From assembly GCA_934101445.1 (NCBI GenBank), contig CAKORQ010000001.1, forward strand, positions 1 to 53,324: 53,324 bases of DNA, given 5' to 3'. Shown here in pieces: positions 188-40,435 of this stretch. Both the position numbers and the translations under genes were made by a program. The notes beneath the pieces are model-generated. The model did not search any database. It had not been told where the DNA came from and saw only the letters and a program-made list of their open reading frames with translations. Positions within the stretch are counted from its first letter, which is position 1. The number at the start of each line of letters is the position of its first letter. This DNA is from an uncultured Bacilli bacterium. GTDB lineage: Bacteria; Bacillota_I; Bacilli_A; RF39; UBA660.

Positions 188-1762
188 CTATACTCTCACT
201 TCAAATCCGTTCTTAAAGATGAACCGTATATCATCCTTTGCATTTACAACTACTTCCTGCACAAGACTGCTCCAAAGTCCTTCATCGAACTCTTCTACCA
301 AAGCCCCCTGCTTTTCCAAGGTCTGGATGAAACCCTTAAGCAATTCTCGTTTTTCCCTTTTTCCGTTAATCTCTCCTTTTATCTTATCACGCTTTTCTTT
401 GATGGAGTCATACCGTTTTACAAGTTCTGTATACTTTCTTCCATACTCATTCTGATCAAGGTTCTTCCGGCTATTCTCTTCAATTGCTGCTTGCATCTGT
501 TTTGCCAAGATATTCATTTCTACAATGCAGTCCCCAAAATCCTTATCAAGCAAATCTGTGTTGCTGACCATGTCCATCATATTTTTTGTATTTTCAATGA
601 TTTCTTCTTTATCTGCAAATAAGGCATTGGCTGCCTGGATAAACAGTTCTTTAATTTCATCTTCCGTAAGATGTGGTGTTTTACATTTACACCCATTTGC
701 ATATTTATGGTTGCATTGGTAGATTACCCGTCTGTACTTATCATTGGAATGCCAGACCTTTGCCCCGTACCAAGAACCGCACTCTCCACATTTTATTTTA
801 GAAGAAAAAGGTGTAGTTCCGCTATATCGCCCCATCGCCTGACGTCTGTTAAGTTCTGCCTGTACCTGCTCGAACTGGTCTGCTGTAACAATACCTTCAT
901 GGTGACCTTCCACATAATACTGTGGTACTTCACCGTTATTTGTCACTCTTTTATGGGTAAGGAAATCCTTTGTGAAACACTTCTGCAGAAGTGCATCCCC
1001 TTTGTACTTCTCATTTTTCAGGATGCTCTGTACTGAACTAATATGCCACTTATCTTTTCCGGCAGGAGTCTTTACCCCCATCTCCGTCAGTTCCTTGGCA
1101 ATCTGATATGAAGAACCTCCCTCTAGGAACCGCTTATAAATATACCTTACTGTAACTGCCTGTTCTTCATTGATGATAAATTCTCCGTTGGGTCCCCGGT
1201 CATATCCAAGGAATGTTTTAAATCCGACACTCGCTTTTCCATCGGCAAAAGATTTTCTTTTACCCCATGTAGTATTTTCTGAAATAGACCTAGATTCCTC
1301 CTGTGCAAGTGAACTCATAATGGTAATCAGCAGTTCCCCTTTCGCATCCAGTGTCCAGATATTCTCCTTTTCAAAATAAATCTCTATCCCATTTTCTTTA
1401 AGTTTTCGCACTGTTGTAAGGGAATCAACCGTGTTTCTGGCAAATCGGCTGACCGATTTTGTGATAATAAGGTCTATCTTTCCATCAAGAGCATCCTCTA
1501 TCATCTGATTAAATCCTTTACGATGACTGGTATTGGTTGCTGTAATGCCTTCGTCCGTGTAAATCCCGGCAAACTCCCATTTTGCGTTGCCCTTAATATA
1601 CTTTGTATAATAATCGACCTGTGCATCATAACTGGTTGCCTGTTCTTCCGAATCAGTCGAAACTCTGGCATATCCGGCTACTCTTCGTTTTCTTACACTT
1701 TGTAAGGGTATCGAATCAAAGCGGTTTCTCGTAGCTGGAATTGTGGTCACTCTTTTTGCCAT
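188..1762 (-). CDS. Large serine recombinase (resolvase N-domain + recombinase domain + Zn-ribbon/coiled-coil C-terminus)
   Basis: N-terminal RVAGYARVSTDSEEQ catalytic-Ser motif; SVSRFARN motif; Cys cluster KCGECGSWY...CNHK...C; 524 aa. It overlaps the upstream recombinase gene by 16 nt. Confidence 0.92.
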   Translation of the reverse strand: MAKRVTTIPATRNRFDSIPLQSVRKRRVAGYARVSTDSEEQATSYDAQVDYYTKYIKGNAKWEFAGIYTDEGITATNTSHRKGFNQMIEDALDGKIDLIITKSVSRFARNTVDSLTTVRKLKENGIEIYFEKENIWTLDAKGELLITIMSSLAQEESRSISENTTWGKRKSFADGKASVGFKTFLGYDRGPNGEFIINEEQAVTVRYIYKRFLEGGSSYQIAKELTEMGVKTPAGKDKWHISSVQSILKNEKYKGDALLQKCFTKDFLTHKRVTNNGEVPQYYVEGHHEGIVTADQFEQVQAELNRRQAMGRYSGTTPFSSKIKCGECGSWYGAKVWHSNDKYRRVIYQCNHKYANGCKCKTPHLTEDEIKELFIQAANALFADKEEIIENTKNMMDMVSNTDLLDKDFGDCIVEMNILAKQMQAAIEENSRKNLDQNEYGRKYTELVKRYDSIKEKRDKIKGEINGKREKRELLKGFIQTLEKQGALVEEFDEGLWSSLVQEVVVNAKDDIRFIFKNGFEVRV

Positions 1763-3258
1763 CCAATCACCTTTCCTTCCTTATAATAAAAATCAATTCT
1801 GTCTTCGTAATTGATAGCCTTTTCTATATTCTGTGCAAACAATCCATCACATTGTTTTTCATGGAAAAGCATCTGTACTGCCCTTCTGAATGTACTGTCA
1901 AATTCTCTTGGTGCAGGACAGTTTCTACACACCCATACTTTATACTTCTTTTTATGTCCGGATGTTCCCATTCTCCAATTGTCAGCTTCAAGCATCCCAC
2001 CACAGCATCCACAAAACAGCCGGGAAGAAAATCCACAATAGCCTTTCTGATATTCACGCAAGATTCTCTTTTCTGTTCCATTCTTCAATCTGAATGTGAT
2101 ATAAGCATTGTCAATGGTAATAACTGTGACCCGGCTCTTGACAGTATCTGCACAAAATCCAGCAAGGCAGAATGCCTTGACGGCTGCATCCTCCAGTTCT
2201 GTTTCATAAATATCCCGAAAATCGCACTCTGCTTTTCCTTTTCTTTCCTTTGTATTACATACCCATTTTTTCCCGTACTTGGATGTTCGTCTGCTTATAG
2301 CACATCCACAATTTGCACACTTGACAATCCCAGAAAAGGCAGTCAGCTCCGGTTTTCTGTTGGGCATCAACTCGGCTCTTTCCTTCATGATCTGCTGTGC
2401 CTTTGCAAATTCTTCCTTGGACACCAAAGGTTCAAACATTTCTTCCACGGCATACATTGGAAGTTCTCCCTGATTTCGTTTTCGTTTATGGCCTTCTGTA
2501 AAAAAATTTTTCTGTAAAATCATGGTACCTGTGTAAGAAATGCTTGAGAGAATATTTTTAATAGTAGAATCGTCCATTGGTACACCGCTTTGTCCCTTTA
2601 CTCCCTTGTCAGCCAGAATCTTGGCTATGCTGTAAGCGGATTCTCCAGAAAGATATCGTTTGTAGATTTCCCTTACAGCCTCTCCTTGTTCTGGAATGAT
2701 GCTAAAATCTTCCCCATTCCACTCATAGCCGTAAGGTGCCTTGTGGCCATTTGGAATACCCATTTTAAATCGTTTTCTGATTCCCCACTTGACATTTTCT
2801 GAAATGCTCTGACTTTCTGCCTGTGCAAATGCTGCCAGAAGAGTAAGCAGTACTTCTCCCTCTTGGGAAAGGGAATGTATACTTTCTCTTTCAAAGAAAA
2901 CATCAATTTCCATATCCTTCAGATGCCTTGTGGCCTTTAAAGTATCTACCGTATCCCTTGCAAATCTGCTGACCGACTTTACAAGTATAAGGTCTATTTT
3001 CCCTAAATCACAGTCACGCATCAGACGATTAAATTCATCTCTGTTCTTTGTGGCAGTTCCTGTGATACCTTCATCAGCATAAACGCCTACATATTCCCAT
3101 TCTGGATTGCTCTGTATTAAAACACTGTAATGACTAATTTGGGCAGAAAGGGAATGATGTAGCTGTTCTGTTTCCATTGATACTCTGGCATAAGCAGCTA
3201 CCCTTTTTTTCGTATGCTGTCTTGAAATAACATGTTCAATTCTGCGTACCGTTGCCAT
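1747..3258 (-). CDS. Large serine recombinase (second, tandem copy)
   Basis: RVAAYARVSMETEQ and SVSRFARD motifs; Cys-rich region KCANCGCA...C; 503 aa. Confidence 0.92.
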   Translation of the reverse strand: MATVRRIEHVISRQHTKKRVAAYARVSMETEQLHHSLSAQISHYSVLIQSNPEWEYVGVYADEGITGTATKNRDEFNRLMRDCDLGKIDLILVKSVSRFARDTVDTLKATRHLKDMEIDVFFERESIHSLSQEGEVLLTLLAAFAQAESQSISENVKWGIRKRFKMGIPNGHKAPYGYEWNGEDFSIIPEQGEAVREIYKRYLSGESAYSIAKILADKGVKGQSGVPMDDSTIKNILSSISYTGTMILQKNFFTEGHKRKRNQGELPMYAVEEMFEPLVSKEEFAKAQQIMKERAELMPNRKPELTAFSGIVKCANCGCAISRRTSKYGKKWVCNTKERKGKAECDFRDIYETELEDAAVKAFCLAGFCADTVKSRVTVITIDNAYITFRLKNGTEKRILREYQKGYCGFSSRLFCGCCGGMLEADNWRMGTSGHKKKYKVWVCRNCPAPREFDSTFRRAVQMLFHEKQCDGLFAQNIEKAINYEDRIDFYYKEGKVIGWQKE

Positions 3259-3272
3259 AAAAAACCTCCTTG

Positions 3273-3479
3273 TCAGTGTGCTATATTCCCGTAACTTCCG
3301 AACTTTATCAAGCGGATATCGGTAAATAATGTAGACAAAGATATGGCGTATTTCTGCCGGAACATTGTATCAATTTGCTCGTACTCATCATCTGAAATAA
3401 TGCCCTTTTTCAGAAGTTGTTTTACCACAAGCATGGTACTCTGATACATTACTTCATTTTGCATCTGCTCATTCGTCAT
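3273..3479 (-). CDS. Small helical protein with SHOCT-like motif (LLKKGIISDDEYEQ), function unknown
   Basis: The internal ATG (MTNEQMQ...) overlaps the stop of the upstream gene (..CATGACGAATGA..). The longer ORF-track start at 3590 would overlap the upstream CDS by over 100 nt. Confidence 0.5.
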   Translation of the reverse strand: MTNEQMQNEVMYQSTMLVVKQLLKKGIISDDEYEQIDTMFRQKYAISLSTLFTDIRLIKFGSYGNIAH

Positions 3480-3888
3480 GGCTGTCACCCCCAAAACGAT
3501 CTTTGATATAGCATTCATGGGAACAATATTTCCTGTTCTTATTTCCATAAACCCTAAAAGGCTTCTTACAGCACGGACACACAAAATCATATGATGCTTT
3601 CCGATTCACTTGATTCAGATGAGAATTCCACCATTTATTCCGACACTTGTCAGAACAGAACTTCTTCTCTTTTCTCCCTGGTGGCTGAATAACCGGAATG
3701 CCACAGCACAAACAAAAATGACTATTCTCTCTGGTTTCAGATTGTCTTTCTGCAATGCCTCCCAATCCGTTTCTTTTACAGAATGTCTTAACTGTATTTG
3801 TGCTTATCCCTAAAACCAGTGATATTTTTCCATAGCTGTATCCTTTTGCTCGCAGTTCCGCTACCTGTGTTCGCTGCATATCATTCAT
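3469..3888 (-). CDS. Sigma-70 region-4/LuxR-like HTH protein with C-terminal Cys-rich zinc-ribbon region
   Basis: RAKGYSYGKISLVLGISTNTVKTFCKR HTH; CLCCG...CSDKC...CPCC...CSHEC Cys motifs. GGAGG lies 8 nt upstream of the ATG at 3888. The ORF-track M1 is a GTG inside that RBS. Confidence 0.65.
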   Translation of the reverse strand: MNDMQRTQVAELRAKGYSYGKISLVLGISTNTVKTFCKRNGLGGIAERQSETRENSHFCLCCGIPVIQPPGRKEKKFCSDKCRNKWWNSHLNQVNRKASYDFVCPCCKKPFRVYGNKNRKYCSHECYIKDRFGGDSHDE

Positions 3889-4071
3889 GTGAAACACCTC
3901 CGATAATGGAAAGGAATAACCGTTATACTGTCTTCTCTTCTATCTGGGTAAGTACCGAAAACAAGTATTTTCCTATTTTCACATCATTTTGTTTTCCCTT
4001 CACAATCCGATGGACACAGAACAGAAAAATGGGCGGTAGTTTACTCAAGGGCTATATACTCATAAGATTTT

Positions 4072-4117
4072 GGCCAAAAAAATAAAGCCTATGAGGTATC
4101 AATTTCCCCATAGGCTT
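4072..4117 (-). terminator. Rho-independent terminator after the endolysin gene
   Basis: Minus-strand 12-bp stem AAGCCUAUGGGG / CCUCAUAGGCUU (one G-U pair) with a 9-nt loop, followed by UAUUUUUUU. Confidence 0.6.
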
Positions 4118-28095: not shown

Positions 28096-28259
28096 CCTTC
28101 AATCCCCCGCTTTTTCAGTAGTCTATCTAATCCCCGGTTTGCACCTTCCACATCTCCAGCATTGATCTGTCCACGGATTGTTCTGTATTCCTGAATAGTA
28201 AGATATCTCTTCATTCCTTCCAGCCTTCCCAGCACATATGCCAAATTCATATCAACCAT
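28092..28259 (-). CDS. Small hypothetical protein (55 aa)
   Basis: AGGGAGG RBS 7 nt upstream of the ATG at 28259. ATGA overlap with the downstream MTase. Confidence 0.45.
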   Translation of the reverse strand: MVDMNLAYVLGRLEGMKRYLTIQEYRTIRGQINAGDVEGANRGLDRLLKKRGIEG

Positions 28260-28818
28260 TTCGTTTCCTCCCTGTCCTAAGAAGCTGTTCCATAATATCC
28301 TCCTGTGGATTTGCTCCGGTATATTCACTGCTGCAGTTTTCCTTCACAACCTGAAAAATCGAATACCAGATAGCGGATGCCTGTTTCTGGTATTGTTGCG
28401 ATATCGTAATATATGGACTGGAACAGGCAGCTCCCGTTGTCGGATGCTTTGCTAAGAATCCATACTGTGTAATGGCTCTCTCGCATTGAATCCATCTGGA
28501 TACGGCCACGGCATACTGTTCAATCTGCTCTTTGCTGATCAGCTTTTCACAGCCCCTCTCCTTAAGCCACATCCATGTCTTTTTAAAGATAGCTGCTGCC
28601 TCGAATTCCTCTCCATCTTTCTGTGTTTCCTTTAAATACTCACTGGGTTCAGGCATCTCTACTCCAGTTAAATCCGCTGTGTCAGAGAAATCCACTACCG
28701 TGAGTTTTCTGCCACCCGGATTTCCCATTGCTATTTTATCTGCTAAAGCCTTTGGCTTTCTGCCTGATCCTGTGCGTTGTCCTCCACGGACAGTCCCATC
28801 TTTCGCCAAGTGCATCAC
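28252..28818 (-). CDS. terS: Terminase small subunit, P27 family
   Basis: GGQRTGSGRKPK...AAAIFKKTWMWLKERG...ISKEQIEQYA..VSRWIQCE pattern; located downstream of HNH. Confidence 0.85.
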   Translation of the reverse strand: MMHLAKDGTVRGGQRTGSGRKPKALADKIAMGNPGGRKLTVVDFSDTADLTGVEMPEPSEYLKETQKDGEEFEAAAIFKKTWMWLKERGCEKLISKEQIEQYAVAVSRWIQCERAITQYGFLAKHPTTGAACSSPYITISQQYQKQASAIWYSIFQVVKENCSSEYTGANPQEDIMEQLLRTGRKRNG

Positions 28819-29423: not shown

Positions 29424-29879
29424 CTATGGCATTCTATGGCAAACCATAGCAACTTTTAAATTAATGGGATTTTCCGGTATTTTTATTCTTGCTATTGCCT
29501 TGTTATGCCATCTCTGAACCGTTGTTATATCCGCACACATCTTATCTCCGATTCTGGACCAGGACAGGTTGTGAATGTAACGGTACTTCAATATCATCTG
29601 GTACTCCGGCTTTTCTACCTGACTGATGATTTCCCGTATCTGTTCTTTGAGTTCCAAAAGCAGTTTCACCTCATTCAGTATTTTTTCTTCCATCATGGAC
29701 ATCTTTTCTATTGTCTTAATGTAAGGAGCGTCCTTATTCTTTGTAGCATTATAATGCTCTTCAAATCCAGGAGACGAAATCGTCTGTGCCATAATACGTA
29801 GTTCTTCCAGTTCAATGGTGTCAGATTTGATTCGCTGGTCTAAGAGATATGATTGTCCCAAATATTCCTTTACCGTCAT
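29424..29879 (-). CDS. ArpU/RinA-like late transcriptional regulator (sigma-70 region-4-like HTH)
   Basis: C-terminal PEYQMILKYRYIHNLSWSRIGDKMCADITTVQRWHNKAIARI. Confidence 0.7.
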   Translation of the reverse strand: MTVKEYLGQSYLLDQRIKSDTIELEELRIMAQTISSPGFEEHYNATKNKDAPYIKTIEKMSMMEEKILNEVKLLLELKEQIREIISQVEKPEYQMILKYRYIHNLSWSRIGDKMCADITTVQRWHNKAIARIKIPENPINLKVAMVCHRMP

Positions 29880-30138: not shown

Positions 30139-31497
30139 CTACATCTCTGCTTTGACAGCATCAATCAGTGAATTTTGTGTACTGTCCTTCTCAGACAATG
30201 CTTTCATGATTCTCTCATCGACTGTTCCCTTTGATATCAGGTGTATAATAGTAACTGTTCCCTCTGCCTGTCCCTGACGATATAATCTGCATACACACTG
30301 CTGATAAAGTTCCAAAGACCAAGTAATCCCAAACCATACCATTGTATTTCCGCCCTGCTGCAGATTAAGACCATGTCCTGCCGATGCAGGATGAATCAAT
30401 GCAACAGGAATTTCCTTGTTATTCCATGCAGTGATACTCTCCTCGGAATCAATCTTTCCATAGTCCACGCCCATTTTCTGAAGGCGTTTTGTAATTCTAT
30501 CAAAATCATGCTTAAACCAATATGCCACAAGAATCGGTTTCCCATTGGCGGCTTCAATGATATCCTCCAATGCATCCAGCTTCCGGTCATGATAGGTAAT
30601 CACCTGTTTTTCATCGGAATACACAGCACCGTTTGCCATTTGGGAAAGTTTGTTAACAAGGGATGCTGCATTTGCCGCTGTTACCTCATGTTCCGGTGTC
30701 GAAAGAATCAGTTCTTCTTTCAGTTCTTTATATTTCTCCATCTCTGCCTCGTCCAGATAGACCGGATATTTCGTACTGATAAGTTCTGGCATGTCCAGGT
30801 AGTCAACGGCTTTCATGGAAATCGTAATATCTTGTATCTTTTCATAAATCTGCTCTTCTGCACCAGGCAGAAGTTTATAACTGTATACAACAGGTCCGTT
30901 TACCCTGTCTGGCTTAAAATAGTTCAAACGGTACTGTCCAATAAATCTTCCAAGTCTCTGCCCCATATCCAGAACCTTAAATTCTGCAAACAGATCCATC
31001 AGTCCCTGACTTGCAGGTGTTCCAGTAAGACCCACGATTCTTTTTATGAATGGTCGAACCTTCATAAGTGCCTTATGCCTTGCAGTCTGATGGTTTTTGA
31101 ATGATGATAATTCATCAATCACAACCATATCAAAGTTGAATAGAACATTGCTTTTATTAACAAGCCACGGTACATTTTCACGGTTGATGATATAGATGTC
31201 AGCATCTGCTGTTAGTGCTTTCTTTCTTTGTGCGACAGTACCTGTCACAATGGAAAGTCTGTAGCCGGACAGCTGCTCCCACTTGTTTACCTCATCCCTC
31301 CATGTTCGTGTAACTCGCAGGGGACAGATAACAAGTACCTTCACAATCTCGAAATACTCATACATCAGATAGTCGATTGCCATAAGTGTTATGGCTGTCT
31401 TTCCCATTCCCATATCAAGAAGTACTGCCGTTATGGGATTATGGGTGATAAAATTGATTGCATACTGCTGATAACTATGCGGTCTGAATCTCATCAA
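30139..31497 (-). CDS. SNF2-family helicase
   Basis: Walker A LDMGMGKT; motif II DELSSFKN; C-terminal helicase motifs (HPASAGHGLNLQ, RLYRQGQ). Confidence 0.9.
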   Translation of the reverse strand: MMRFRPHSYQQYAINFITHNPITAVLLDMGMGKTAITLMAIDYLMYEYFEIVKVLVICPLRVTRTWRDEVNKWEQLSGYRLSIVTGTVAQRKKALTADADIYIINRENVPWLVNKSNVLFNFDMVVIDELSSFKNHQTARHKALMKVRPFIKRIVGLTGTPASQGLMDLFAEFKVLDMGQRLGRFIGQYRLNYFKPDRVNGPVVYSYKLLPGAEEQIYEKIQDITISMKAVDYLDMPELISTKYPVYLDEAEMEKYKELKEELILSTPEHEVTAANAASLVNKLSQMANGAVYSDEKQVITYHDRKLDALEDIIEAANGKPILVAYWFKHDFDRITKRLQKMGVDYGKIDSEESITAWNNKEIPVALIHPASAGHGLNLQQGGNTMVWFGITWSLELYQQCVCRLYRQGQAEGTVTIIHLISKGTVDERIMKALSEKDSTQNSLIDAVKAEM

Positions 31498-31756
31498 GGA
31501 TACCTCCTATATTTTCTATGGTATCAAGGACATACACCTTAAAACCTAAATGCTGTAACAGCCTATGCCGGGATGCCTGTAATGGTCTTGGCTTTTCTCC
31601 CGGAGCCTTAACTTCCACCAGACCAAAATGCCTACCCGGTAGGAATACCAATCGGTCGGGCATCCCATCAAAGGATGGGCAGACCCATTTAGGACAGATG
31701 CCACCACGTTTTTTTACTTCACTTACTAATTTCTGTTCAATGGTCTTTTCTCTCAT
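31475..31756 (-). CDS. VRR-NUC domain nuclease
   Basis: GMPDRLVFLPGRHFGLVEVKAPGEKPRPLQ (D..EVK motif). GGGAGG RBS 7 nt upstream of the ATG at 31756. Confidence 0.85.
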   Translation of the reverse strand: MREKTIEQKLVSEVKKRGGICPKWVCPSFDGMPDRLVFLPGRHFGLVEVKAPGEKPRPLQASRHRLLQHLGFKVYVLDTIENIGGILDEIQTA

Positions 31757-31969
31757 CAGCGAACCTCCCATCAAAATTTGAAAACTATGACGGTCAAGAC
31801 ACTCTCTGCCCAAACCTCTCTATATACATTTTTTAATTTCTTCTATAGACTACTTTTGGTAGAGAGTGTAATGACTATCACAAATGGCTTAAAATAAGGG
31901 TTTATCACATTATGAATAGAACTCGTAAAAGTTTATATTTGACCGCCATCGACTGTCATTTGCAAAATG

Positions 31970-34246
31970 TTAAATGAAATCACTTCCAGATTTGAGTTTC
32001 ACGCCATGCACGAAACTTCCCTTATTCGTTTTGTGTCTGAAAAATCCTGCCTGTTCAATAGCTGCATAAAAGTCAGTTGTACTACGGATATATTCGCCTC
32101 CCTGAATACAGTAAGCACGATACTGCTGATAAAACTCCCCAGATTTTTCTTCTAAATTGGATCCAATCTCGCAGCAGTCTGCAAGGAAATGCCCAAGCCA
32201 GTCATTATCCTCACGATATGCAGCCACAGCATCCTCCACACACTTCGGGTCATCCACCTTATAATCGTTGTGGCTTACCTTCTCTGCTCCCTCAATGATC
32301 CATTTCATGATGGCAGGAGCAGCATTTTCATATAAATAATCTGCATAATTTTTGATGTCGGAATTTCCCTGTATCTTGGCATTAAACGGAATTACCTTAA
32401 GTCTCCTCCAAATACCGTCATCATTGGCTCCAACCTTCGGAAGATGGTTGGTATATAAAGTCACTTGATGGGATGGTACAAAATGAAACGGGTCTTTGTA
32501 TTTCTTACAAGCCTGAATCTCATCCGTAGAACACAGCTGTTTTACCATTGCCGTATTAAGGCGCACACCCTCCTGCATTTCAGAGGCAATGATAAGACGC
32601 TTTCCCTTAAGTTCCGCCATCTCCGGCTGAGCATTTACCTTGTTTCCCATCGTGAGAATGTCCGAAGATATCTTCCCTGCATAACTTCCAAGTACTCTGG
32701 CTACCGTGTTCCAGAAGGTGCTTTTTCCATTTGCCCCGTCCCCGTAGGCAATAATAATGAATTCCGAATATACCTTTCCAATGGCTGCAAGTCCAATCAC
32801 CTGCTGAACGTAATCAATCAATTCTGTATCACTACAGAAAAAAGTCTGCAGGGCTTCCTGCCAGATATCCGCTCCCTGATCTCCCGGGGAGCATTCTGTT
32901 ATCTTGGTAATCAAATCCCTCGAATCATGCTCTCTTCCTCCGGCCACACCACTTTTAAGATCATAGGTTGCATCCGGGGTATTCAAAAGATCAGGATTAG
33001 AATCGAGGTCTGATACCTTTACCCCAAGCATGGACTTGGCTACATTTAAGGTTGCTGTGATATACTTGTAATCTCTACGTTTCATGGAAAAGGCAAGATA
33101 CTTTTCTGCCCCGACAAGCATATAAAAAAGGGCAAGATGTGCTGACTGGATTTCCTTCGCCAGTGCCTTAGAACCCTGATCCACCAATTTTTCATCATAT
33201 CCGGCATCAACCAACGCTTTCTTTGCTGCCTCTAACAAGTCTTTGGCGTCCTGTAACTGCAGATCAAGGAATTCCACACAGGCGCCAACTGCCATCTGCT
33301 TATCCTCAACCCAGGCCGTTCCGTTATAACGCATATAATCTGTAGCTGCCGTAAACAAAAGTTCTTCGCCATATACTCTGGACAATACTTTTGCCTGTCC
33401 GATGTCGGAGTAGTCTTCCGGACGGAGATATCCCGGTCCATTACCAAAATCATCATTATACTGATCCGGTGGAACATACCCACTGCTACCACTTATTTTT
33501 GTCCGGAAGAATTTAAGTGCAGAAAACCAAACCGTCTGCAGTTCACCATCAGGAAGTGGTGGGGTACACTTGTCCGCTTCTTCCATAAATAAATTTTTTG
33601 CTTTTTCACTCTCCCCGTACCGTTTCAGCACTTTTGCTGCAAACAGGGAAAGCGTATTATTCCGGTTACCTTCCGGAATTGTTCCCCCGGAAATTGGAAA
33701 CTCCTGTTCATCATCTGTAATAGCAATTTCATCGGAAATCAGAATCCACCCATCATGCCACACTACATCATCTATATCCACATCTGCTCCAAAAATAAAT
33801 CTGGCAGCATCCAGCGCATTCCCATCAAAGAAGGGGAATACACTATGAATGGCACGTTTCATGCCTGCATAATAGGCAGCATCTGTGATTTCAGGAATAA
33901 GAAAATATACATGAAATCTTGGTCTGGGTGATTTTCCATCCTTGGGAAGCAGATTGTGTCTGCTTGGTGCGATGACATAGGCAATATCCGGCATCAATTC
34001 ATCCAGCTTTTCCGGAGTAATCCAATCCTCCGGATCATCACTATGGTCATTGTCACAATCCATTACTACAACATTGGAATGCAGGAAGTTCCCGGCACTC
34101 CTGTAATTCTTTTCATACTCTGCACATACATGGTCAAATTTGAGTGCTTTTGCCATATCTTCCGGAGTCGAAATCTCTACCTTTTTCGGGTAGAGACAGT
34201 TTCTTTTATCTCCTGAGGTGCTTGCAATCCATAAATCCAAGGTCAT
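31970..34246 (-). CDS. Primase-polymerase / D5-P4 family SF3 helicase (replicative primase-helicase)
   Basis: 758 aa. N-terminal prim-pol-like acidic motifs (VVMDCDNDH). Walker A YGDGANGKST with a P4/D5-type C-terminal region. Confidence 0.88.
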   Translation of the reverse strand: MTLDLWIASTSGDKRNCLYPKKVEISTPEDMAKALKFDHVCAEYEKNYRSAGNFLHSNVVVMDCDNDHSDDPEDWITPEKLDELMPDIAYVIAPSRHNLLPKDGKSPRPRFHVYFLIPEITDAAYYAGMKRAIHSVFPFFDGNALDAARFIFGADVDIDDVVWHDGWILISDEIAITDDEQEFPISGGTIPEGNRNNTLSLFAAKVLKRYGESEKAKNLFMEEADKCTPPLPDGELQTVWFSALKFFRTKISGSSGYVPPDQYNDDFGNGPGYLRPEDYSDIGQAKVLSRVYGEELLFTAATDYMRYNGTAWVEDKQMAVGACVEFLDLQLQDAKDLLEAAKKALVDAGYDEKLVDQGSKALAKEIQSAHLALFYMLVGAEKYLAFSMKRRDYKYITATLNVAKSMLGVKVSDLDSNPDLLNTPDATYDLKSGVAGGREHDSRDLITKITECSPGDQGADIWQEALQTFFCSDTELIDYVQQVIGLAAIGKVYSEFIIIAYGDGANGKSTFWNTVARVLGSYAGKISSDILTMGNKVNAQPEMAELKGKRLIIASEMQEGVRLNTAMVKQLCSTDEIQACKKYKDPFHFVPSHQVTLYTNHLPKVGANDDGIWRRLKVIPFNAKIQGNSDIKNYADYLYENAAPAIMKWIIEGAEKVSHNDYKVDDPKCVEDAVAAYREDNDWLGHFLADCCEIGSNLEEKSGEFYQQYRAYCIQGGEYIRSTTDFYAAIEQAGFFRHKTNKGSFVHGVKLKSGSDFI

Positions 34247-34249
34247 TCG

Positions 34250-34516
34250 TTACCCCTCCTCGCTTAATGCGATAATATTAAAAAGTAAATCCAGCATCAG
34301 TTCTTTGGCGGGGATATTGGAATCAAACTGTAATGCTCTGGTTCCATCCGGACGAATTAACATTGCTGCTACTCCAGAACAATGATCAGGAACCTCTATG
34401 GTAATATGAGTATTCCATCTGCCCTTTTCTGTCTTCTGCTGATACTCCGGTCTGGAAACCAGGACTTCTTCCCAAATCTGCTGCATGGTTACTTTTTCGT
34501 TTCTTCCTTTTTCCAT
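34250..34516 (-). CDS. Hypothetical protein (88 aa)
   Basis: ORF in the operon; overlaps the upstream gene's stop. Confidence 0.45.
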   Translation of the reverse strand: MEKGRNEKVTMQQIWEEVLVSRPEYQQKTEKGRWNTHITIEVPDHCSGVAAMLIRPDGTRALQFDSNIPAKELMLDLLFNIIALSEEG

Positions 34517-35061
34517 AATGAAATCTCCTTGTCAGTAAAATATCTGATTGTCATGTTTTTTCGCTCTGCATATGCGATTTCATTCTCCATTCCCTTGGAA
34601 TGCGCATCCCCAAATACCCACAGTTCTGCACATTTAGATAAAATTGCAATTCCCATAAACAAAGCAAGATCACGTTCCGTTTCCTCAGACATAAATTGAG
34701 GAAAAAGTAAATGCGGAGCTATAGGGATTGCTCCATGATTCACTGCATATCTGCTATACTGCTTGGCTTTCTTTATATTTCCTGCAATATCCCCACTAAA
34801 GGGAGAACAAATATACACCATTGGTCTAAATCTTTTCTGCTCCCGGTCTATGTTGGCAAACGCCTGGTATGGTACTACATCCGGATATCCTTCCTGATTT
34901 TTATAACCTATCCCATCAGACTCACCTCTTCCACTTTTTTGATAGGGATACGGATTTATCCCTTCACTATCCAATGGACATGGATTTATGAATTGGGCGG
35001 AGTTTTCTTTACTTTTTTCACTGTGGTTGGATTTCTTCCTTTTTATATGAAAAATTTGCAA
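34489..35061 (-). CDS. DUF4406 (nucleoside 2-deoxyribosyltransferase-like fold) protein; start uncertain
   Basis: VYICSPFSGD...IPIAPHLLFPQ...CAELWVFGD.HSKGMENEI motif set. The ORF-track start is a TTG with a weak RBS. The first ATG is at MVYICSP. Confidence 0.65.
   Translation of the reverse strand: MQIFHIKRKKSNHSEKSKENSAQFINPCPLDSEGINPYPYQKSGRGESDGIGYKNQEGYPDVVPYQAFANIDREQKRFRPMVYICSPFSGDIAGNIKKAKQYSRYAVNHGAIPIAPHLLFPQFMSEETERDLALFMGIAILSKCAELWVFGDAHSKGMENEIAYAERKNMTIRYFTDKEISLWKKEETKK
34963..35003. repeat. Left arm of a 41-bp imperfect inverted repeat (TTCACTATCCAATGGACA - 12 nt - TTGGGCGGAGT)
   Basis: Its reverse complement recurs at 35216..35256, with 18/18 and 11/11 identical blocks separated by a 12-nt spacer. 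Confidence 0.85.
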
Positions 35062-35215
35062 TTAATGTTTTCCATAAAATCCACCGCCCGATTTGAAAAA
35101 CAATGTCCATAAGACAGTGAGAAGCAGCGGAAAACATCTTTTTAATGATTTCCGTCCAAATCCCAATAAGCTGTCCGCCGGATAGCAAGGGGCATAGAAA
35201 ATTAAATTTTAAAAT

Positions 35216-35256
35216 ACTCCGCCCAAGGCTTCAAAGCCTGTCCATTGGATAGTGAA
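35216..35256. repeat. Right arm of the 41-bp inverted repeat (ACTCCGCCCAA - 12 nt - TGTCCATTGGATAGTGAA)
   Basis: See the left arm. The 12-nt spacer here (GGCTTCAAAGCC) is itself palindromic. Box B contains the palindrome TCCAtTGGA. Confidence 0.85.
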
Positions 35257-35291
35257 ACATAAAGAAACACTTCAGAAAGGCGGTGCTAGAA

Positions 35292-35456
35292 ATGTCAGCC
35301 ATTATGACCACAGAATCGAAAGCCGTCCATGATACTAACCTGGATCATGAACTAGCAGATGTTCTGATAGCAATTAGTGTTATTACAAGACAGCTTGCGA
35401 AGAAAATCACAGCCAATCAAATGTCAAAGGAGGAAAAATCTAATGAAAAACACTGA
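35292..35456 (+). CDS. Small hypothetical protein (54 aa), first gene of the plus-strand replication arm
   Basis: ATG-initiated ORF MSAIMTTESKAVHDTNLDHELADVLIAISVITRQLAKK..., below the ORF-track size cut-off. Overlaps the next gene's start. Confidence 0.35.
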   Translation: MSAIMTTESKAVHDTNLDHELADVLIAISVITRQLAKKITANQMSKEEKSNEKH

Positions 35457-35793
35457 AATCTCAGCTTTGCTGAAAAACATCTCGGACAGTTTTCTTGCTC
35501 TGAGTAAAATTTTCTCTTCTACTGAAGAAATTGCCTCAGCAAAACAGCCCAAAGCATCTGTGCTGGAAGAAACAGGAATTGAGGAAAGCAAATCGGAAAC
35601 AGCATCTAAATCCTATACAAAGGAAGAAGTCAGAGCCTTACTGGCACAAAAGGCCAAAGCTGATGCTGGTATTTACAAAGCTGATGTAAAAGCCATCGTA
35701 GCTAAATATTCATCAGATGGTACTCTGACCAAAGTCCCGGAAGAAAACTATCCGGAACTGGTAGCGGCATTGGAGGTGATAGGCAATGGCTAA
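35443..35793 (+). CDS. Hypothetical protein (116 aa) preceding DUF2800
   Basis: AAAGGAGGA RBS before the ATG at 35443 (MKNTEISALL...). The ORF-track start at 35377 is a GTG without an RBS. Confidence 0.6.
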   Translation: MKNTEISALLKNISDSFLALSKIFSSTEEIASAKQPKASVLEETGIEESKSETASKSYTKEEVRALLAQKAKADAGIYKADVKAIVAKYSSDGTLTKVPEENYPELVAALEVIGNG

Positions 35794-36907
35794 ACACGCT
35801 CTGCTCTCTGCCTCATCCATGCACCGAATTCTTGCGTGTCCTCCCTCCGCCCGGTTATGCGCCAATATTGAGGATAGAGCCAGTCCCTATTCACAGCAGG
35901 GAACAGATGCTCACGAACTCTGTGAATATAAAATCCTGAGAGCACTCGGCAATCCGGTACATGATCCCAGAGATACTTTAGAGTTCTACGATGCAGAAAT
36001 GGAGAATTGCACCGAGGAATACCAAAATTTTGTTATGGAGCAGCTGCAAGAGGCAAAGGGATACTGCCCTGACCCCATTATTCTGGTTGAACAGAAACTG
36101 GATTTTTCCAAGTGGGTTCCGGACGGATTTGGAACTGGAGATTGTCTCATTGTTGCAGATAAATGTCTCCACATCATTGATTTTAAATACGGGCTCGGCA
36201 TACTGGTCGATGCAGAACGCAACCCTCAAATGATGTGTTATGCATTGGGTGCCCTTGATATCTACGATGGCATTTATGATATCAGCACCGTTAAGATGAC
36301 CATTTTCCAGCCGAGGCGGGACAACATCTCCACCTGCACAATGCCAAAGGAAGAACTCCTCTTCTGGGCAGATTCCGTCCTCGCTCCTACTGCCAGACTG
36401 GCATACGAAGGGGAAGGCGAATTCAAAGCAGGAGAACACTGTGCATTCTGCAAAGTCAAAGCAACCTGCCGTAAGCGTGCAGAGTATAACCTTGCGCTTG
36501 CTAAATATGATTTTGAGATGCCTGCTACCTTAGAGGATTCAGAAATTGCTGCAATCTTACCGCAAGTCGATGAGCTTGTATCCTGGGTAAACGACATCAA
36601 GGAATATGCTCTTCAAAAAGCCTTAAGTGGAACAAAATATGGCGGCTACAAGATAGTCGAAGGAAAGTCAAACCGGAAGTACACAGACGAATATGCTGTG
36701 GCATCAGCCGTAACAGCTGCCGGGTATGACCCCTACGAGAAGAAACTTCTCGGTATCACTGCAATGACTTCTCTTCTTGGGAAGGCGAAGTTTAACGAAC
36801 TTCTCGGTGGCTTGATAGACAAGCCAGCAGGAAAACCCACCCTCGTGCCTGAGACAGATAAGCGTCCGGCACTCAACACAGCCAAAGATGATTTTAAAGA
36901 CAAATAA
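35786..36907 (+). CDS. DUF2800-type PD-(D/E)XK (Cas4/RecB-like) exonuclease with C-terminal Cys cluster
   Basis: GTDAHELCE...GDCLIVAD..LHIIDFKYG motifs and CAFCKVKATC. Confidence 0.85.
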   Translation: MAKHALLSASSMHRILACPPSARLCANIEDRASPYSQQGTDAHELCEYKILRALGNPVHDPRDTLEFYDAEMENCTEEYQNFVMEQLQEAKGYCPDPIILVEQKLDFSKWVPDGFGTGDCLIVADKCLHIIDFKYGLGILVDAERNPQMMCYALGALDIYDGIYDISTVKMTIFQPRRDNISTCTMPKEELLFWADSVLAPTARLAYEGEGEFKAGEHCAFCKVKATCRKRAEYNLALAKYDFEMPATLEDSEIAAILPQVDELVSWVNDIKEYALQKALSGTKYGGYKIVEGKSNRKYTDEYAVASAVTAAGYDPYEKKLLGITAMTSLLGKAKFNELLGGLIDKPAGKPTLVPETDKRPALNTAKDDFKDK

Positions 36908-36920
36908 GGAGGAAAAAATC

Positions 36921-37484
36921 ATGGCAACTATTACTAATCCTACCAAGGTTATCACAGGTCCCGACACCAGATGGAGTTATGCAAATGTATGGGACCCCAA
37001 ATCCATTAACGGGGGAAAAGAAAAGTATTCCATCTCTCTCATCATCTCGAAAATGGATACTGCTACACTGAGCAGGATTGAAGCCGCTATTCAGGCAGCC
37101 TATGAAGAAGGACAGGGCAAGTTAAAGGGTAACGGAAAAACCGTACCGCCTCTTTCTTCCATCAAGACTCCCCTGCGTGATGGCGATTTGGAGAAACCGG
37201 ATGACGAAGCCTATGCAGGATGCTATTTCATCAATGCAAATTCTGCCACTGCCCCTGGTATTGTTGATGCAAGCCGCCAGCCTATCATCGACCGTTCCGA
37301 AGTTTACTCCGGTGTATACGGCAGGGCATCCATCAATTTCTATGCTTTCAATGTAAACGGCAATCGTGGTATTGCCTGCGGACTTAACAATCTGCAGAAG
37401 ATTCGTGATGGCGAACCTCTCGGTTCCAAGGCAAGCGCAGAATCCGATTTTGCTACTGAGGATGATGACGAATTTCTTTCATAA
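36921..37484 (+). CDS. DUF2815-type phage ssDNA-binding protein
   Basis: AAGGAGG RBS before the ATG at 36921. RWSYANVWDPKS...PLRDGD...YFINANS pattern. Confidence 0.8.
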   Translation: MATITNPTKVITGPDTRWSYANVWDPKSINGGKEKYSISLIISKMDTATLSRIEAAIQAAYEEGQGKLKGNGKTVPPLSSIKTPLRDGDLEKPDDEAYAGCYFINANSATAPGIVDASRQPIIDRSEVYSGVYGRASINFYAFNVNGNRGIACGLNNLQKIRDGEPLGSKASAESDFATEDDDEFLS

Positions 37485-37552
37485 GTAGTAACAAACTACC
37501 GAGTGGCAGGGATAAACTCCTCTGCCACTCTTCTAATTTAAGGAGACAACTC

Positions 37553-39550
37553 ATGGAAAAAACAGCTTTCATAAAAACAATCAGTATCGATCTTGAAACC
37601 TATTCCAGTGTTCCTATCAAAAATGGTATGTATCCATATGCCGAAGCTCCGGATTCCGAAATTCTGCTATTTGCATACTCCATCAATGGGGAACCTGTTA
37701 TTGTAATTGATGTAGCAAGTGGGGATGAAATTCCTAACTATATACTGCAGGCACTCACGGACGATTCCGTAGAAAAGTGGGCATTTAATGCAGCTTTTGA
37801 ACGAGTCTTCCTGTCCTACTGGTTGAAACGCAATTACCCGGAGTATTTCAAAGGCTACAGCACTCCGGAAGATTCCGTTGGTAATTATCTCTCCCCAGCA
37901 GCATGGAAATGCTCCATGATCTGGTCTGCATATATGGGACTTCCCCTCTCTTTGGAAGGCGTTGGTGCTGTCCTTGGCTTAGAGGAGCAGAAACTGAAAG
38001 AAGGAAAAGACCTCATACGTTACTTCTGTGTTCCCTGTAAACCTACAAAAGCAAATGGTGGCAGAACCCGGAATATGCCTTCTGATGCTCCGGAAAAGTG
38101 GGAATTATTTAAGAAATATAATAAAAGGGATGTCGAGGTAGAAATGTCTATTCAGCACCGCCTGTCCCGCTTTCCTGTACCAGACAGTGTATGGGAAGAA
38201 TATCATATTGATCAGGAAATCAACGACCGTGGAATTATGCTGGATATGGATGTAGTAAAAAATGCTATCAATTTTGATGCCTATAGTAAGGCAAGGCTTA
38301 TGGGAACTATGAAGGATAAAACGGAACTGGAAAATCCAAATTCCGTAGTACAGATGAAAGACTGGCTTTCTTCCAAAGGTATCGAAACAGATTCACTGGA
38401 TAAGAAAGCAATTATCAGCCTGCTCAAAGCAGTTCCCTCTGATGTTGCAGATGTTTTAAAACTCCGTCAGCAGCTTGCGAAATCATCCGTAAAAAAATAT
38501 CAAGCTATGGAAAATTCTGTATGTGCCGATGGTCGGGCAAGGGGGATGTTCCAATTCTACGGAGCCAACCGTTCCGGCAGATGGGCTGGACGTATTATCC
38601 AGCTGCAGAATCTTCCTCAGAACCATATGTCTGATTTGGCGGAGGCAAGAGATATTGTGAAATCCGGGGACTATGAATTCATGAATGTACTTTACGATGA
38701 TGTACCGGATGCCCTTTCTCAGCTGATAAGAACAGCCTTTATTCCAAAACCGGGATACAAATTTTGCGTATCAGACTTTTCTGCTATTGAAGCCAGAGTC
38801 ATTGCATTTCTTGCAAAAGAAAACTGGCGTATGGATGTATTTAAGAACAATGGAGATATCTATTGTGCGTCTGCATCCGCCATGTTCCATGTCCCTGTAG
38901 AAAAACACGGGCAGAACGCCCACCTTCGTCAAAAAGGAAAGATTGCAGAACTCGCCCTTGGATACGGTGGTTCTGTCGGGGCATTGACCTCCATGGGGGC
39001 GCTCGATATGGGACTCTCTGAAGAAGAACTCCAGCCCCTGGTTAATTCATGGCGTGCTGCAAATCCCAATATCGTACAGCTTTGGTGGGATGTAGATGAT
39101 GCAGTAAAAACAGCAATCAAACAGCGTACCGCAACAGAAACTCACAGCATCAGATTTGTATATCAGAGTGGTATGCTTTTCATCATCCTTCCATCTGGCA
39201 GAAGACTCTGCTATGTAAAACCTCATATTGGCGAAAACAAATTCGGTGGAGAATCTGTAACCTATGAGGGTGTCGGCACAAATAAAAAGTGGGAACGTAT
39301 CGAATCCTATGGTCCCAAGTTCGTAGAAAATATCGTGCAGGCCATCAGCCGGGATATTCTCTGTTATGCCATGCATACTCTCTCCCACTGCTTTATCGTA
39401 GGTCATGTACATGATGAACTGATTATTGAAACACCCATAGATGCTGACCTTACTGCTATCTGTGAGCAGATGGGCAGAACCCCCGATTGGATTAACGGAC
39501 TGCTCCTCCGTGCCGATGGATATGAAACAGAATTTTATAAAAAAGACTAA
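37553..39550 (+). CDS. Family A DNA polymerase with 3'-5' exonuclease domain
   Basis: ISIDLETYS (Exo I); KGKIAELALGYGGSVGAL (motif B-like); VGHVHDELIIE (motif C). Confidence 0.95.
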   Translation: MEKTAFIKTISIDLETYSSVPIKNGMYPYAEAPDSEILLFAYSINGEPVIVIDVASGDEIPNYILQALTDDSVEKWAFNAAFERVFLSYWLKRNYPEYFKGYSTPEDSVGNYLSPAAWKCSMIWSAYMGLPLSLEGVGAVLGLEEQKLKEGKDLIRYFCVPCKPTKANGGRTRNMPSDAPEKWELFKKYNKRDVEVEMSIQHRLSRFPVPDSVWEEYHIDQEINDRGIMLDMDVVKNAINFDAYSKARLMGTMKDKTELENPNSVVQMKDWLSSKGIETDSLDKKAIISLLKAVPSDVADVLKLRQQLAKSSVKKYQAMENSVCADGRARGMFQFYGANRSGRWAGRIIQLQNLPQNHMSDLAEARDIVKSGDYEFMNVLYDDVPDALSQLIRTAFIPKPGYKFCVSDFSAIEARVIAFLAKENWRMDVFKNNGDIYCASASAMFHVPVEKHGQNAHLRQKGKIAELALGYGGSVGALTSMGALDMGLSEEELQPLVNSWRAANPNIVQLWWDVDDAVKTAIKQRTATETHSIRFVYQSGMLFIILPSGRRLCYVKPHIGENKFGGESVTYEGVGTNKKWERIESYGPKFVENIVQAISRDILCYAMHTLSHCFIVGHVHDELIIETPIDADLTAICEQMGRTPDWINGLLLRADGYETEFYKKD

Positions 39551-39600: not shown

Positions 39601-40155
39601 CTACTTATACTCTCTCAGTTTCTTTTCAAGTTCACTCACAACTGCGTCTTTACGATCTCTAAGGGTTCTTCTAGGAATCCCCAGTTCCTCTGCAACACTC
39701 CTCTGAGAATCACCGTTTGCTATCATCTGGCAAATGCGAAGTTTTTCAGAAGTAAGTTCTCCCAACACATTATACAGTGCATCTATTACAACACTGTATG
39801 CCACCAGTTCTTCCGGATTATCTCCCGCTGACTTCTGATCAAAGCCACTCTCAACCAAAACCTCATAAGAAGTTTCTAACTCTGCTCTGGCAGCTTTATC
39901 ACGCTCATCTTTTCTTGACCAGTTATTAAAAATCCTGTTCATAAAGTCAGCTTCTTCCTTGGTAGCTGCTTCGAAAATCGCATAATAATGTCTCATTCTT
40001 CCCGGCAGAGCAATACGGGCTACAGGTACATCGTTGCTCTTGTAATGCTTAATCGTCTCTTCATCCCCATCCTCAATGGGTACAAAGTATGGATTTGCAT
40101 AACTGAGCATTGCTTCGTTGGCGGTTACATTAGAATCTTTTTCCTTTTTTGTCAT
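39601..40155 (-). CDS. Sigma-70-family-like regulator (region-4 HTH)
   Basis: C-terminal LTSEKLRICQMIANGDSQRSVAEELGIPRRTLRDRKDAVV. GGAAAGGA RBS before the ATG at 40155. Confidence 0.75.
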   Translation of the reverse strand: MTKKEKDSNVTANEAMLSYANPYFVPIEDGDEETIKHYKSNDVPVARIALPGRMRHYYAIFEAATKEEADFMNRIFNNWSRKDERDKAARAELETSYEVLVESGFDQKSAGDNPEELVAYSVVIDALYNVLGELTSEKLRICQMIANGDSQRSVAEELGIPRRTLRDRKDAVVSELEKKLREYK

Positions 40156-40156
40156 A

Positions 40157-40191
40157 GGTTGTCCTTTCCGCCGCACTGAGCGAGGACAACC
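40157..40191 (-). promoter_or_regulatory. Leader hairpin whose 3' arm overlaps the RBS of the sigma-like gene
   Basis: Minus strand GGUUGUCCU - 17 nt - AGGACAACC (perfect 9 bp), ending 1 nt before the AUG. Confidence 0.4.
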
Positions 40192-40382
40192 CGAATGTTG
40201 GCACGACAACAAGACGAGATTTCATAGTTTTCTGGAGATAATCATCAATTGAAAACTCCTACAAAACTATGTATCCTCGCCCAATGTCGGCCGCCATTTG
40301 GCTCGAATTATTTATTTGAACAACCCAAATATGCCATATTTACAAAGCCTTACATATTAAGTGCGACTTTAAATTTAGGCAC

Positions 40383-40435
40383 GAAAAAAGGACCTTTGTG
40401 GTCATCCGTTATAACAGATAATCACAAAAGTCCTT
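40383..40435 (-). terminator. Long hairpin terminator downstream of the ImmA-HTH gene
   Basis: Minus strand AAGGACUUUUGUG ... CACAAAGGUCCUU (13 bp, 1 mismatch), followed by a U-run. A second perfect 9-bp hairpin lies at 40454..40474. Confidence 0.5.

Follow-up and report, generated by a model that had tools for sequence, protein, structure and literature searches.

Control region of the prophage and its repeated motif

The stretch analysed here (the window) is contig CAKORQ010000001.1 of assembly GCA_934101445.1, a complete 53-kb contig (53,324 nucleotides, nt) from a 1.3-Mb metagenome-assembled genome, and its element is a Lachnospiraceae-type prophage with two replication operons that diverge from a common AT-rich control region. 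The rightward operon (35292–39550, plus strand) encodes open reading frames (ORFs) of 54 and 138 amino acids (aa), a DUF2800 nuclease, an Enc34-type single-stranded-DNA-binding protein and DNA polymerase A (PolA). The leftward operon starts (30139–34821, minus strand) with DUF7768, an 88-aa ORF, a D5_N/DUF5906 primase-helicase, a 112-aa endonuclease-like ORF and an SNF2 helicase, and its minus-strand genes run on into the packaging, head, tail and lysis genes. This gene layout confirmed that the DUF7768–primase and DUF2800–PolA arms diverge where an earlier interpretation of the bare DNA (the sequence-only reading) had placed an inverted repeat bracketing 212 base pairs (bp), for which it offered three explanations: a flippable promoter segment, operators for a phage regulator, or an origin with iteron-like boxes.

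The repeat is real. Re-inspection and a repeat search (inverted repeat of 53 nt, 77% complementary) bore out the reverse-complementary arms at 34963–35003 and 35216–35256, their perfect blocks of 18 bp (TTCACTATCCAATGGACA) and 11 bp (TTGGGCGGAGT) and the 12-nt spacers, which are unrelated between the arms; the palindromic spacer of the right arm (GGCTTCAAAGCC) and the TCCAnTGGA palindrome were both present. The two arms are, however, merely the outermost pair of an array belonging to a five-copy family, a third related copy of which (35084–35120) was already flagged by the repeat search. The family is built on an asymmetric, two-part motif of 37 nt, CCGCCC (box A)-N14-TGTCCATnGGATAGTGA (box B), with the family pattern CCGCCC-N14-TGTCCATnGGAnnGTGA, and the element overall covers 37–41 bp, consisting of an A-tract, the CCGCCC box A, a 14-nt spacer of free sequence and the box B TGTCCATnGGATAGTGAA.

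The window contained one leftward copy, three rightward copies and one distal copy 31 kb away. The leftward copy, PL (34963–35003, minus strand), is the left arm, with the CCGCCC box A at 35000–34995, a 14-nt spacer and box B TGTCCATTGGATAGTGAA at 34980–34963. It stands back-to-back with the first rightward copy, PR1, across an AT-rich spacer (35004–35080), so that their box A starts are 84 bp apart. PR1 (35081–35121, plus strand) is a full copy, with CCGCCC at 35084–35089, N14 and TGTCCATAAGACAGTGAG; PR2 (35149–35189, plus strand) is degenerate, with CCGTCC at 35152–35157, N14 and TGTCCGCCGGATAGCAA (TGTCCGCCGGATAGCAAG); and PR3 (35216–35256, plus strand) is the right arm. PR1 and PR2 are 68 bp apart, PR2 and PR3 67 bp. 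From the end of PR3 it is 20 nt to the Shine-Dalgarno sequence (35277–35285) and 35 nt to the ATG at 35292. The distal copy, Pint (3999–4039, minus strand; CCGCCC-N14-TGTCCATCGGATTGTGAA), lies between the endolysin terminator and the operon of HTH139, a 139-aa helix-turn-helix protein. The intrinsic terminator of the endolysin gene (4073–4117, minus strand; AAGCCTATG...CATAGGCTT followed by a T run) is immediately upstream of Pint, and 110 nt downstream the operon begins (188–3888, minus strand) with HTH139 (3888–3469), a SHOCT_2 protein (3590–3273) and two large serine recombinases (3258–1747 and 1762–188). Every one of the five copies is oriented toward its downstream genes.

The motif is exclusive to the element. 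Four matches to CCGCCC-N10-16-TGTCCAT were observed in the window against 0.01 expected, and the exact 37-nt pattern gave four against 0.00 expected from shuffles. A position-weight matrix scored the five sites at 59 (PL), 54 (Pint), 44 (PR3), 37 (PR1) and 3 bits (PR2, precisely 3.3 bits and the third-best site of the plus strand), the next best over 107 kb of both strands reaching only -24. Pattern and matrix searches found no further copy in the window or elsewhere in the 1.3-Mb genome. Three additional CCGCC boxes listed by the sequence-only reading were accounted for: two of them (35081–35090 and 35171–35181) are parts of the inner motif copies, and the third (35278–35287) is the Shine-Dalgarno sequence AAGGCGGTG of the 54-aa ORF starting at 35292. 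The left arm does lie, as described earlier, inside a 5' extension of the ORF then assigned to DUF4406, but the family is now DUF7768 and the extension is spurious, since the ATG at 34821 corresponds to residue 80, where the Pfam domain begins. A scan of the control region for sigma-70-type promoters remained at chance level. A -10-like GAnnnT hexamer could be read inside box B in nearly all copies.

Conservation of the array in related prophages

Conservation was followed in 160 loci fetched with DUF2800 as query. The arms are retained in related prophages as members of the array: the same intergenic region with the same layout was present in eight of the loci (L005, L006, L009, L088, L089, L091, L092 and L093), each showing a single leftward copy and, facing right, one, two or three copies that are 71–83 bp apart where in tandem. 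Altogether 32 distinct instances from 11 sequences (the window and 10 fetched loci, standing for eight related elements) had constant boxes and a constant 14-nt gap, a spacer of free sequence and an A-rich tract before box A. The tandem spacing varied among relatives, with values of 62–63, 67–68, 71–74 and 81–83 bp (68/67 bp in the window). The divergent box A starts were 72–86 bp apart in L005, L009, L091, L092 and L093 and about 206–219 bp apart in L088 and L089; in the variant locus L145, which has two copies in total, the opposed box A elements stand back-to-back with 20 bp between them. The short distance (about 20 nt) from the last rightward copy to a TTCAGAAAGG ribosome-binding site was common to the window and all relatives. 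An extra copy precedes the HTH139 homologue in G002 and G008, at the same position as Pint. No motif was found outside the prophage in the relatives' genomes (1.6–5.9 Mb), and a reversed-pattern control gave 0 matches. The phage collection yielded no close relative of the control region, its single match (67%) being to a Ruminococcus phage deoxyribosyltransferase gene; contigs P0066 and P0062 end short of the control region.

These comparisons bear directly on the proposal that promoter direction is switched by a recombinase, through inversion of either the 212-bp segment or the 4.5-kb PolA arm. In its favour, the inverted repeats share a perfect core of 18 bp and, as in the known invertons (Hin/hix, Gin/gix, fimS and the Bacteroides promoter invertons), lie on either side of a short intergenic segment where operons diverge; the element also encodes two serine recombinases whose operon is preceded by a motif copy. 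Flipping should produce hybrid arms, for example TTCACTATCCAATGGACA followed by GGCTTTGAAGCC, but a scan of metagenome and viral contigs with arm patterns able to catch such hybrids returned the native orientation only, and the window, about 20 related loci and L216, an independent contig of 100% identity, all had the same orientation, a comparison at assembly level and hence weaker than one at read level. Unlike an inverton, the array has extra direct copies inside and outside the segment, the inner ones pointing to the DUF2800 side in every case; the segment varies in length and shrinks to 20 bp in L145; and the spacers of the arms are wholly different, as expected for independent protein-binding sites. 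Although inverted repeats flank the 212-bp segment, no sigma-70-type promoter in a useful orientation was detectable in it. The recombinases are encoded 31 kb away and are large, integrase-type enzymes (Recombinase and Zn_ribbon_recom domains) rather than of the Hin/Gin type; no small dedicated invertase was found nearby, and the two large serine recombinases are the only ones in the element. Finally, relatives lacking HTH139 or the window's recombinases keep the array, as in G003, which has neither an HTH139 homologue nor a distal motif copy. A phase-variable inverton is thus very improbable here, and this attractive but wrong reading is hereby corrected.

Directly after PL the leftward transcript would contain a stem-loop (34945–34962, minus strand; GGGATA-aatccg-TATCCC, -10.3 kcal/mol, z -2.55), which probably represents its 5' end. 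The stem co-varies, with GGGATA/TATCCC in the window and GGAAT/ATTCC, GGGAT/ATCCC and GGAA/TTCC in the relatives. In the rightward copies the GTGAA(A)G end tends to pair with a CTTTCA just 5' of the ribosome-binding site, the tendency being weak (mean z -1.1).

The 142-nt leader between PL and the ATG of DUF7768 (34822–34944, minus strand) contains two mini-ORFs preceded by Shine-Dalgarno sequences, ATG GGA TAG at 34916 and ATG TAG near 34880. The relatives have a GAAAGGAG ribosome-binding site after the hairpin at the same place; a frameshift may therefore have cost the window a small first gene or an N-terminal extension.

A single gene tracks the motif

The 160 loci were also searched by tblastn for homologues of the proteins that might read the motif. 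A 184-aa protein encoded at 39601–40155 (minus strand), convergent with PolA, was found together with the motif in six loci, where its homologues were 58–64% identical and located at the same place; these six are all the motif-bearing loci with sufficient 3' flank. The motif occurred without this candidate regulator in two loci, both truncated, and the regulator without the exact motif in four (L145, L095, L075 and L076), where the homologues were more distant (28–48% identity); the remaining 148 loci had neither. Three of the four loci with distant homologues (L145, L095 and L075) were inspected for the motif.

The other candidates behaved differently. Homologues of the primase, DUF7768, p54 and p138 were present in 33–115 motif-less loci (the primase in 115), and in L085 the primase and DUF7768 were 81–83% identical to those of the window, closer than in any motif-bearing locus, with no motif present. 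The 647-aa ImmA/HTH_26 protein was rejected as a binder because G003, a complete record with four copies of the motif, lacks it, and HTH139 on account of its absence from G001, G003, G004 and G005 and its presence in the motif-less G013 and G016. Since all these candidates are either widespread without the motif or absent where it is present, the motif is, on the sequence comparisons, linked to a single gene, that at 39601–40155, and the 184-aa protein is most likely its reader. A search of viral contigs gave no close relatives of the regulator protein; a profile search gathered homologues in 74 clusters. A literature search found no paper on this protein family or on the motif.

The same comparisons weigh on the notion that the array is the phage replication origin, with the copies acting as iterons beside an AT-rich unwinding region. 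Three direct sites and one inverted site within an AT-rich 300 bp between replication operons are what such an origin might look like, and the GC skew switches sign near 35–39 kb, although it merely mirrors gene orientation. Iterons should vary together with their initiator and be regularly phased and confined to the origin. Instead, the motif was independent of the primase-helicase: four loci (L085, L087, L007 and L008) have primases 72–81% identical to that of the window (81% in L085) and no such motif, and L145 conversely has the motif and no primase match at E<=1e-5. A full copy also lies 31 kb off, before the recombinase operon, in a conserved position; each site is oriented with its downstream gene at a fixed distance from the ribosome-binding site; and the tandem spacing is irregular (62–83 bp), with just two copies in L145. 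The iteron explanation is accordingly weakened and quite improbable for the motif, while an origin could lie in the same AT-rich intergenic region without using the motif as an iteron.

At the same spot, L008 (2948–3222), L087 (2941–3219) and L085 (2958–3215) have near-identical replication genes and no CCGCCC motif, and carry analogous arrays (one leftward and one or two rightward) of unrelated 19–53-bp elements. The control region and its regulator seem to be swapped as a cassette.

Domains and genetic setting of the 184-aa protein

The AlphaFold models of the regulator (mean predicted local distance difference test score, pLDDT, of 69.5 for the full length and 71.3 for the N-terminal domain alone) consisted of a beta-alpha-beta-beta-alpha N-terminal domain, a long helix and a four-helix C-terminal domain. 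In a Foldseek comparison the latter superposed on the -35-binding domain of Mycobacterium tuberculosis SigL (3hug) with a TM score of 0.77–0.80 and a root-mean-square deviation of 1.5–2.4 Å, and it also superposed on LuxR/GerE-type domains. Sigma-factor sequence models matched weakly, phrog_1740 ('RNA polymerase sigma factor') with 2.9e-9 and TIGR02937 with 2.5e-5, the latter below its cut-off and with the C-terminal part alone. Together these matches identify a C-terminal helix-turn-helix resembling sigma region 4. For the N-terminal domain neither the full-length nor the domain-only model gave a fold match in the PDB with E<0.001; KH-like matches had a probability <0.3 and a TM score <0.35, too low for a fold to be assigned.

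The regulator gene lies behind a strong terminator (40388–40435) and a structured leader, downstream of the gene for the 647-aa ImmA/HTH protein, as would suit a first lytic gene that is kept silent in the lysogen. The matrix scan placed no motif copy at the regulator's own gene, which speaks against autoregulation. In L196 (8054–9507) the regulator is divergent from a gene for a 204-aa HTH_3 (CI-like) protein, the classical geometry of an immunity switch, which has no counterpart in the window. Next to the regulator start the window has a 31-codon upstream ORF (40156–40250, minus strand; MKSRLVVVPTFGLSS...) that overlaps the start of the gene, and a 9-bp stem (GGTTGTCCT/AGGACAACC) that ends at its start codon; in the relatives the corresponding peptide-like stretch, VSRLVVVPSDGLSS, is conserved, but in frame with the regulator. 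The upstream ORF or the stem may be a leader peptide or an RNA switch controlling the regulator.

Co-variation of the recognition helix with the boxes

The loci with more distant regulators revealed variants of the motif. In the close group the helix PRRTLRDRKD pairs with the box A CCGCCC. In L145 the helix reads AQTTLNGRKK and the motif C(C/T)GTTC-N14-TGTCCATAGGAAgGTGa, with box A changed and box B kept, and in L196 and L202, members of a 45% identical subfamily with the helices IAQTTLHDRKM and IVQTTLHDRKI, box A was CCGTTC in both. For L090 the motif, CCGTTC-N14-TGTCCATAGGAAAGTGA, was seen first, and its regulator, read afterwards, proved to have the helix IAQTTLHDRKA, matching the prediction made from the DNA; the (A/V)QTTL helix was therefore found with a CCGTTC box A in four loci (L145, L196, L202 and L090). 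L095 has the helix of the close group with a similar box A in the variant TCGGCC-N14-TyCCCAAAGAAaaGTGA, and both its N-terminal domain and its box B are divergent. Further variants were CCGTCC-N14-TGTCCTTaGAgAATTAGA in L075 and GGTCAT-N14-TGCCCAGCGAATAGTGA in L008, whose record contains a distant regulator homologue elsewhere. The pattern is suggestive of a C-terminal helix that goes with box A and of an N-terminal domain that seems to go with box B.

Two types of box A occur side by side in L211 (5560–5990 of the locus, minus strand). This mobile element is a different one, its primase being only 25% identical, and in it two tandem copies, CCGCCC-N14-TGTCCATTGGATAGTGAAGG and then TCGTTC-N14-TGTCCAAAGGAATATGAAAGG, closely precede a gene with its ribosome-binding site. 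L211 could be satellite-like, responding to the regulators of two specificity classes of helper phage.

The co-variation also bears on whether the motif acts as RNA. In that case promoters lying further upstream would transcribe it, and it would be a leader element in several copies, with a role in antitermination or processing. Such a role would explain why the orientation always agrees with the direction of transcription, why the GTGAA end is, in most copies, followed by a short stem-loop or part of one and why the stems after the leftward copies co-vary. Upstream promoters, however, cannot fit in L145, where opposed box A elements only 20 bp apart leave no room for them; the 14-nt spacer has no conserved pairing; the Rfam search gave no match beyond a chance microRNA (E 0.1); and box A co-varies with a DNA-binding helix. 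A signal acting at the RNA level is accordingly very improbable.

Proposed function of the motif

The motif copies probably serve the early-lytic and excision operons as phage-specific promoters or as sites for an activator, a reading that draws on sequence comparison. Box A would occupy a -35-like position and be read by the sigma-4-like C-terminal helix-turn-helix, while box B would span a -10-like and probable start-site region, read by the N-terminal domain either directly or via RNA polymerase. We infer from this arrangement that the 184-aa protein binds the sites and activates transcription, with start sites near the GTGAA end of box B and leaders that open with a short stem-loop, and that induction proceeds as a cascade. 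Repression upstream of the regulator would be lifted, the 184-aa protein would be made, and it would then act jointly on the replication arms, the leftward lytic operon and the operon for the recombinases (excision), switching all of them on. PR1–PR3 would be duplicated promoter-plus-leader units, the spacing of which varies among relatives without phasing; such units fit a tandem spacing of 62–83 bp, which is not helix-phased, better than a cooperative operator or iteron array does. The late genes would probably need a separate activator of the DUF1492/LtrB type (29424–29879).

Several points weigh against this reading. The regulator models are of moderate confidence (mean pLDDT 69–71). Sigma region 2 was not found in the protein, with no Sigma70_r2 match in Pfam and a beta-alpha-beta-beta-alpha fold in the N-terminal part; as it lacks this region, the modelled 184-aa protein falls outside the canonical sigma factors, even if its mode of action may resemble theirs. 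Helix-turn-helix domains of the sigma/LuxR type are also used by repressors, so the activating sign is a supposition. With about 18–20 bp, box B is long for a -10 element. The co-variation spans four or five lineages that are not fully independent, and L095 shares the recognition helix of the window, yet its box A differs at two positions, which means that the code from helix to box is not strict.

Repression is the obvious converse: the sites would be operators at which the 184-aa or another phage protein silences early and recombinase promoters read by the main sigma factor of the host. Among the three earlier explanations, operators for a phage regulator come closest, in so far as the sites are most likely recognition sites of a phage DNA-binding protein. 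The sites overlap the sole space available for promoters and contain a -10-like GAnnnT inside box B, the helix-turn-helix domains of LuxR/GerE and sigma-4 type are known from repressors too, and a regulon of replication and excision is precisely what a prophage repressor must silence. Against this, a conserved -35 element is missing, and the search for sigma-70-type promoters stayed at chance level. The sites look promoter- or activator-like, being asymmetric and two-part without dyads; at 37 nt they differ from operators of the CI/Cro type, which are dyad-symmetric, 14–18 bp long, overlap host-type -35/-10 promoters and adjoin the repressor gene. No repressor gene is adjacent here, both flanking operons being devoted to replication. 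The regulator gene, moreover, is placed like a first lytic gene rather than a maintenance repressor, with a terminator and leader upstream and, in L196, a divergent HTH_3 gene, and it lacks the motif copy that autoregulation would require. We therefore consider operators unlikely.

A bolder form of the promoter reading makes the 184-aa protein a minimal, non-canonical sigma factor, with a sigma-4 domain for box A and an unrelated domain replacing sigma-2. Its beta-alpha-beta-beta-alpha domain would recognise (T)GTCCAT...GTGA as a -10 equivalent and engage the core polymerase. This remains a tentative idea with a rather small chance of being right. If true, it would amount to a new promoter-recognition architecture with a readable code (PRRTL to CCGCCC, AQTTL to CCGTTC) across the prophages of gut Lachnospiraceae, and other mobile elements may exploit that code, as L211 with its two types of box A might.

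Phage-specific promoters or activator sites, with or without this refinement, would define a concrete regulon, in which a single small protein acts through a 37-nt signal on three operons, those for replication, for excision and of the leftward lytic arm. Such prophages are often found in Lachnospiraceae from the guts of humans and animals (relatives of Roseburia, Agathobacter, Lachnospira and Blautia), and their control of lysis and lysogeny is essentially unstudied. If confirmed, the regulon would make prophage induction readable from metatranscriptomes, provide orthogonal promoter/regulator pairs for genetically difficult gut Firmicutes and show the exchange of regulatory cassettes between otherwise near-identical replication modules.

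Comparison with known regulatory systems

Among the kinds described so far, the Ltr superfamily of late-gene activators in phages of Gram-positive bacteria comes closest; it comprises RinA, ArpU, LtrA (Sigma70_r4), LtrB (DUF1492) and LtrC, and its members bind repeats at the terS promoter and are expressed under the control of the phage repressor (Quiles-Puchalt et al., 2013; PMC3753634). The window would encode a phage regulator of the sigma-4 type together with its cognate promoters. Like the Ltr proteins it is a small phage protein, with a sigma-region-4-type helix-turn-helix as in LtrA and LtrB (LtrA being compared by description), and it would act through repeated cognate sites at dedicated phage promoters without a normal host promoter, each being specific for its own control region and probably expressed under the prophage repressor. 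In contrast, Ltr proteins serve one promoter only, that upstream of terS, and their short direct repeats of 7 nt directly follow their own gene, whereas the sites in the window are 37-nt asymmetric units at three places, none of them near terS (28252–28818) or the regulator gene. The window regulator gene, furthermore, follows PolA instead of preceding terS, and its N-terminal domain is unrelated. The pre-terS slot of the LtrB-family late activators (PMC3753634) is occupied in the window by another sigma-4-like gene, DUF1492/phrog_36 (29424–29879, minus strand), which directly precedes those for the HNH endonuclease and the small terminase subunit; because of this position, the phage probably carries a second, late-gene regulator in the DUF1492 protein.

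The two-domain architecture with a C-terminal sigma-4 fold, and the co-variation of an upstream box with the sigma-4 helix, are also shared with the extracytoplasmic function (ECF, group 4) sigma factors, as is an asymmetric, two-part target with a fixed spacer. ECF promoters have the layout -35/16–17 nt/CGTC, and the CCGCC-N15/16-GTC of the window resembles this geometry. The window protein differs from ECF factors in being without sigma region 2 and without an autoregulatory copy at its own gene, and no anti-sigma partner was identified for it.

Phage activators that replace -35 recognition include T4 MotA with AsiA at the middle promoters and lambda CII at PRE, PI and PaQ; CII co-activates the integrase promoter with others through sites that are direct tetrads, TTGC-N6-TTGC, and serves lysogeny. 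The likeness to MotA and CII, a phage protein at or beside the -35 position of promoters without a usable -35 element, is a functional analogy only. As with CII, the motif of the window would serve the recombinase operon together with the control region; the protein folds differ, CII serves lysogeny rather than lytic genes, and there is no evidence of a sigma-remodelling partner in the window.

Ends of the contig

At the right end of the contig (51940–53130, minus strand) lies a 396-aa ORF for a Mg-chelatase-like ATPase of the ComM/YifB type. The comM gene is a frequent prophage target, and with this ORF at one end and the serine recombinases at the other (188–3258), the contig may end near the attachment sites of the prophage.

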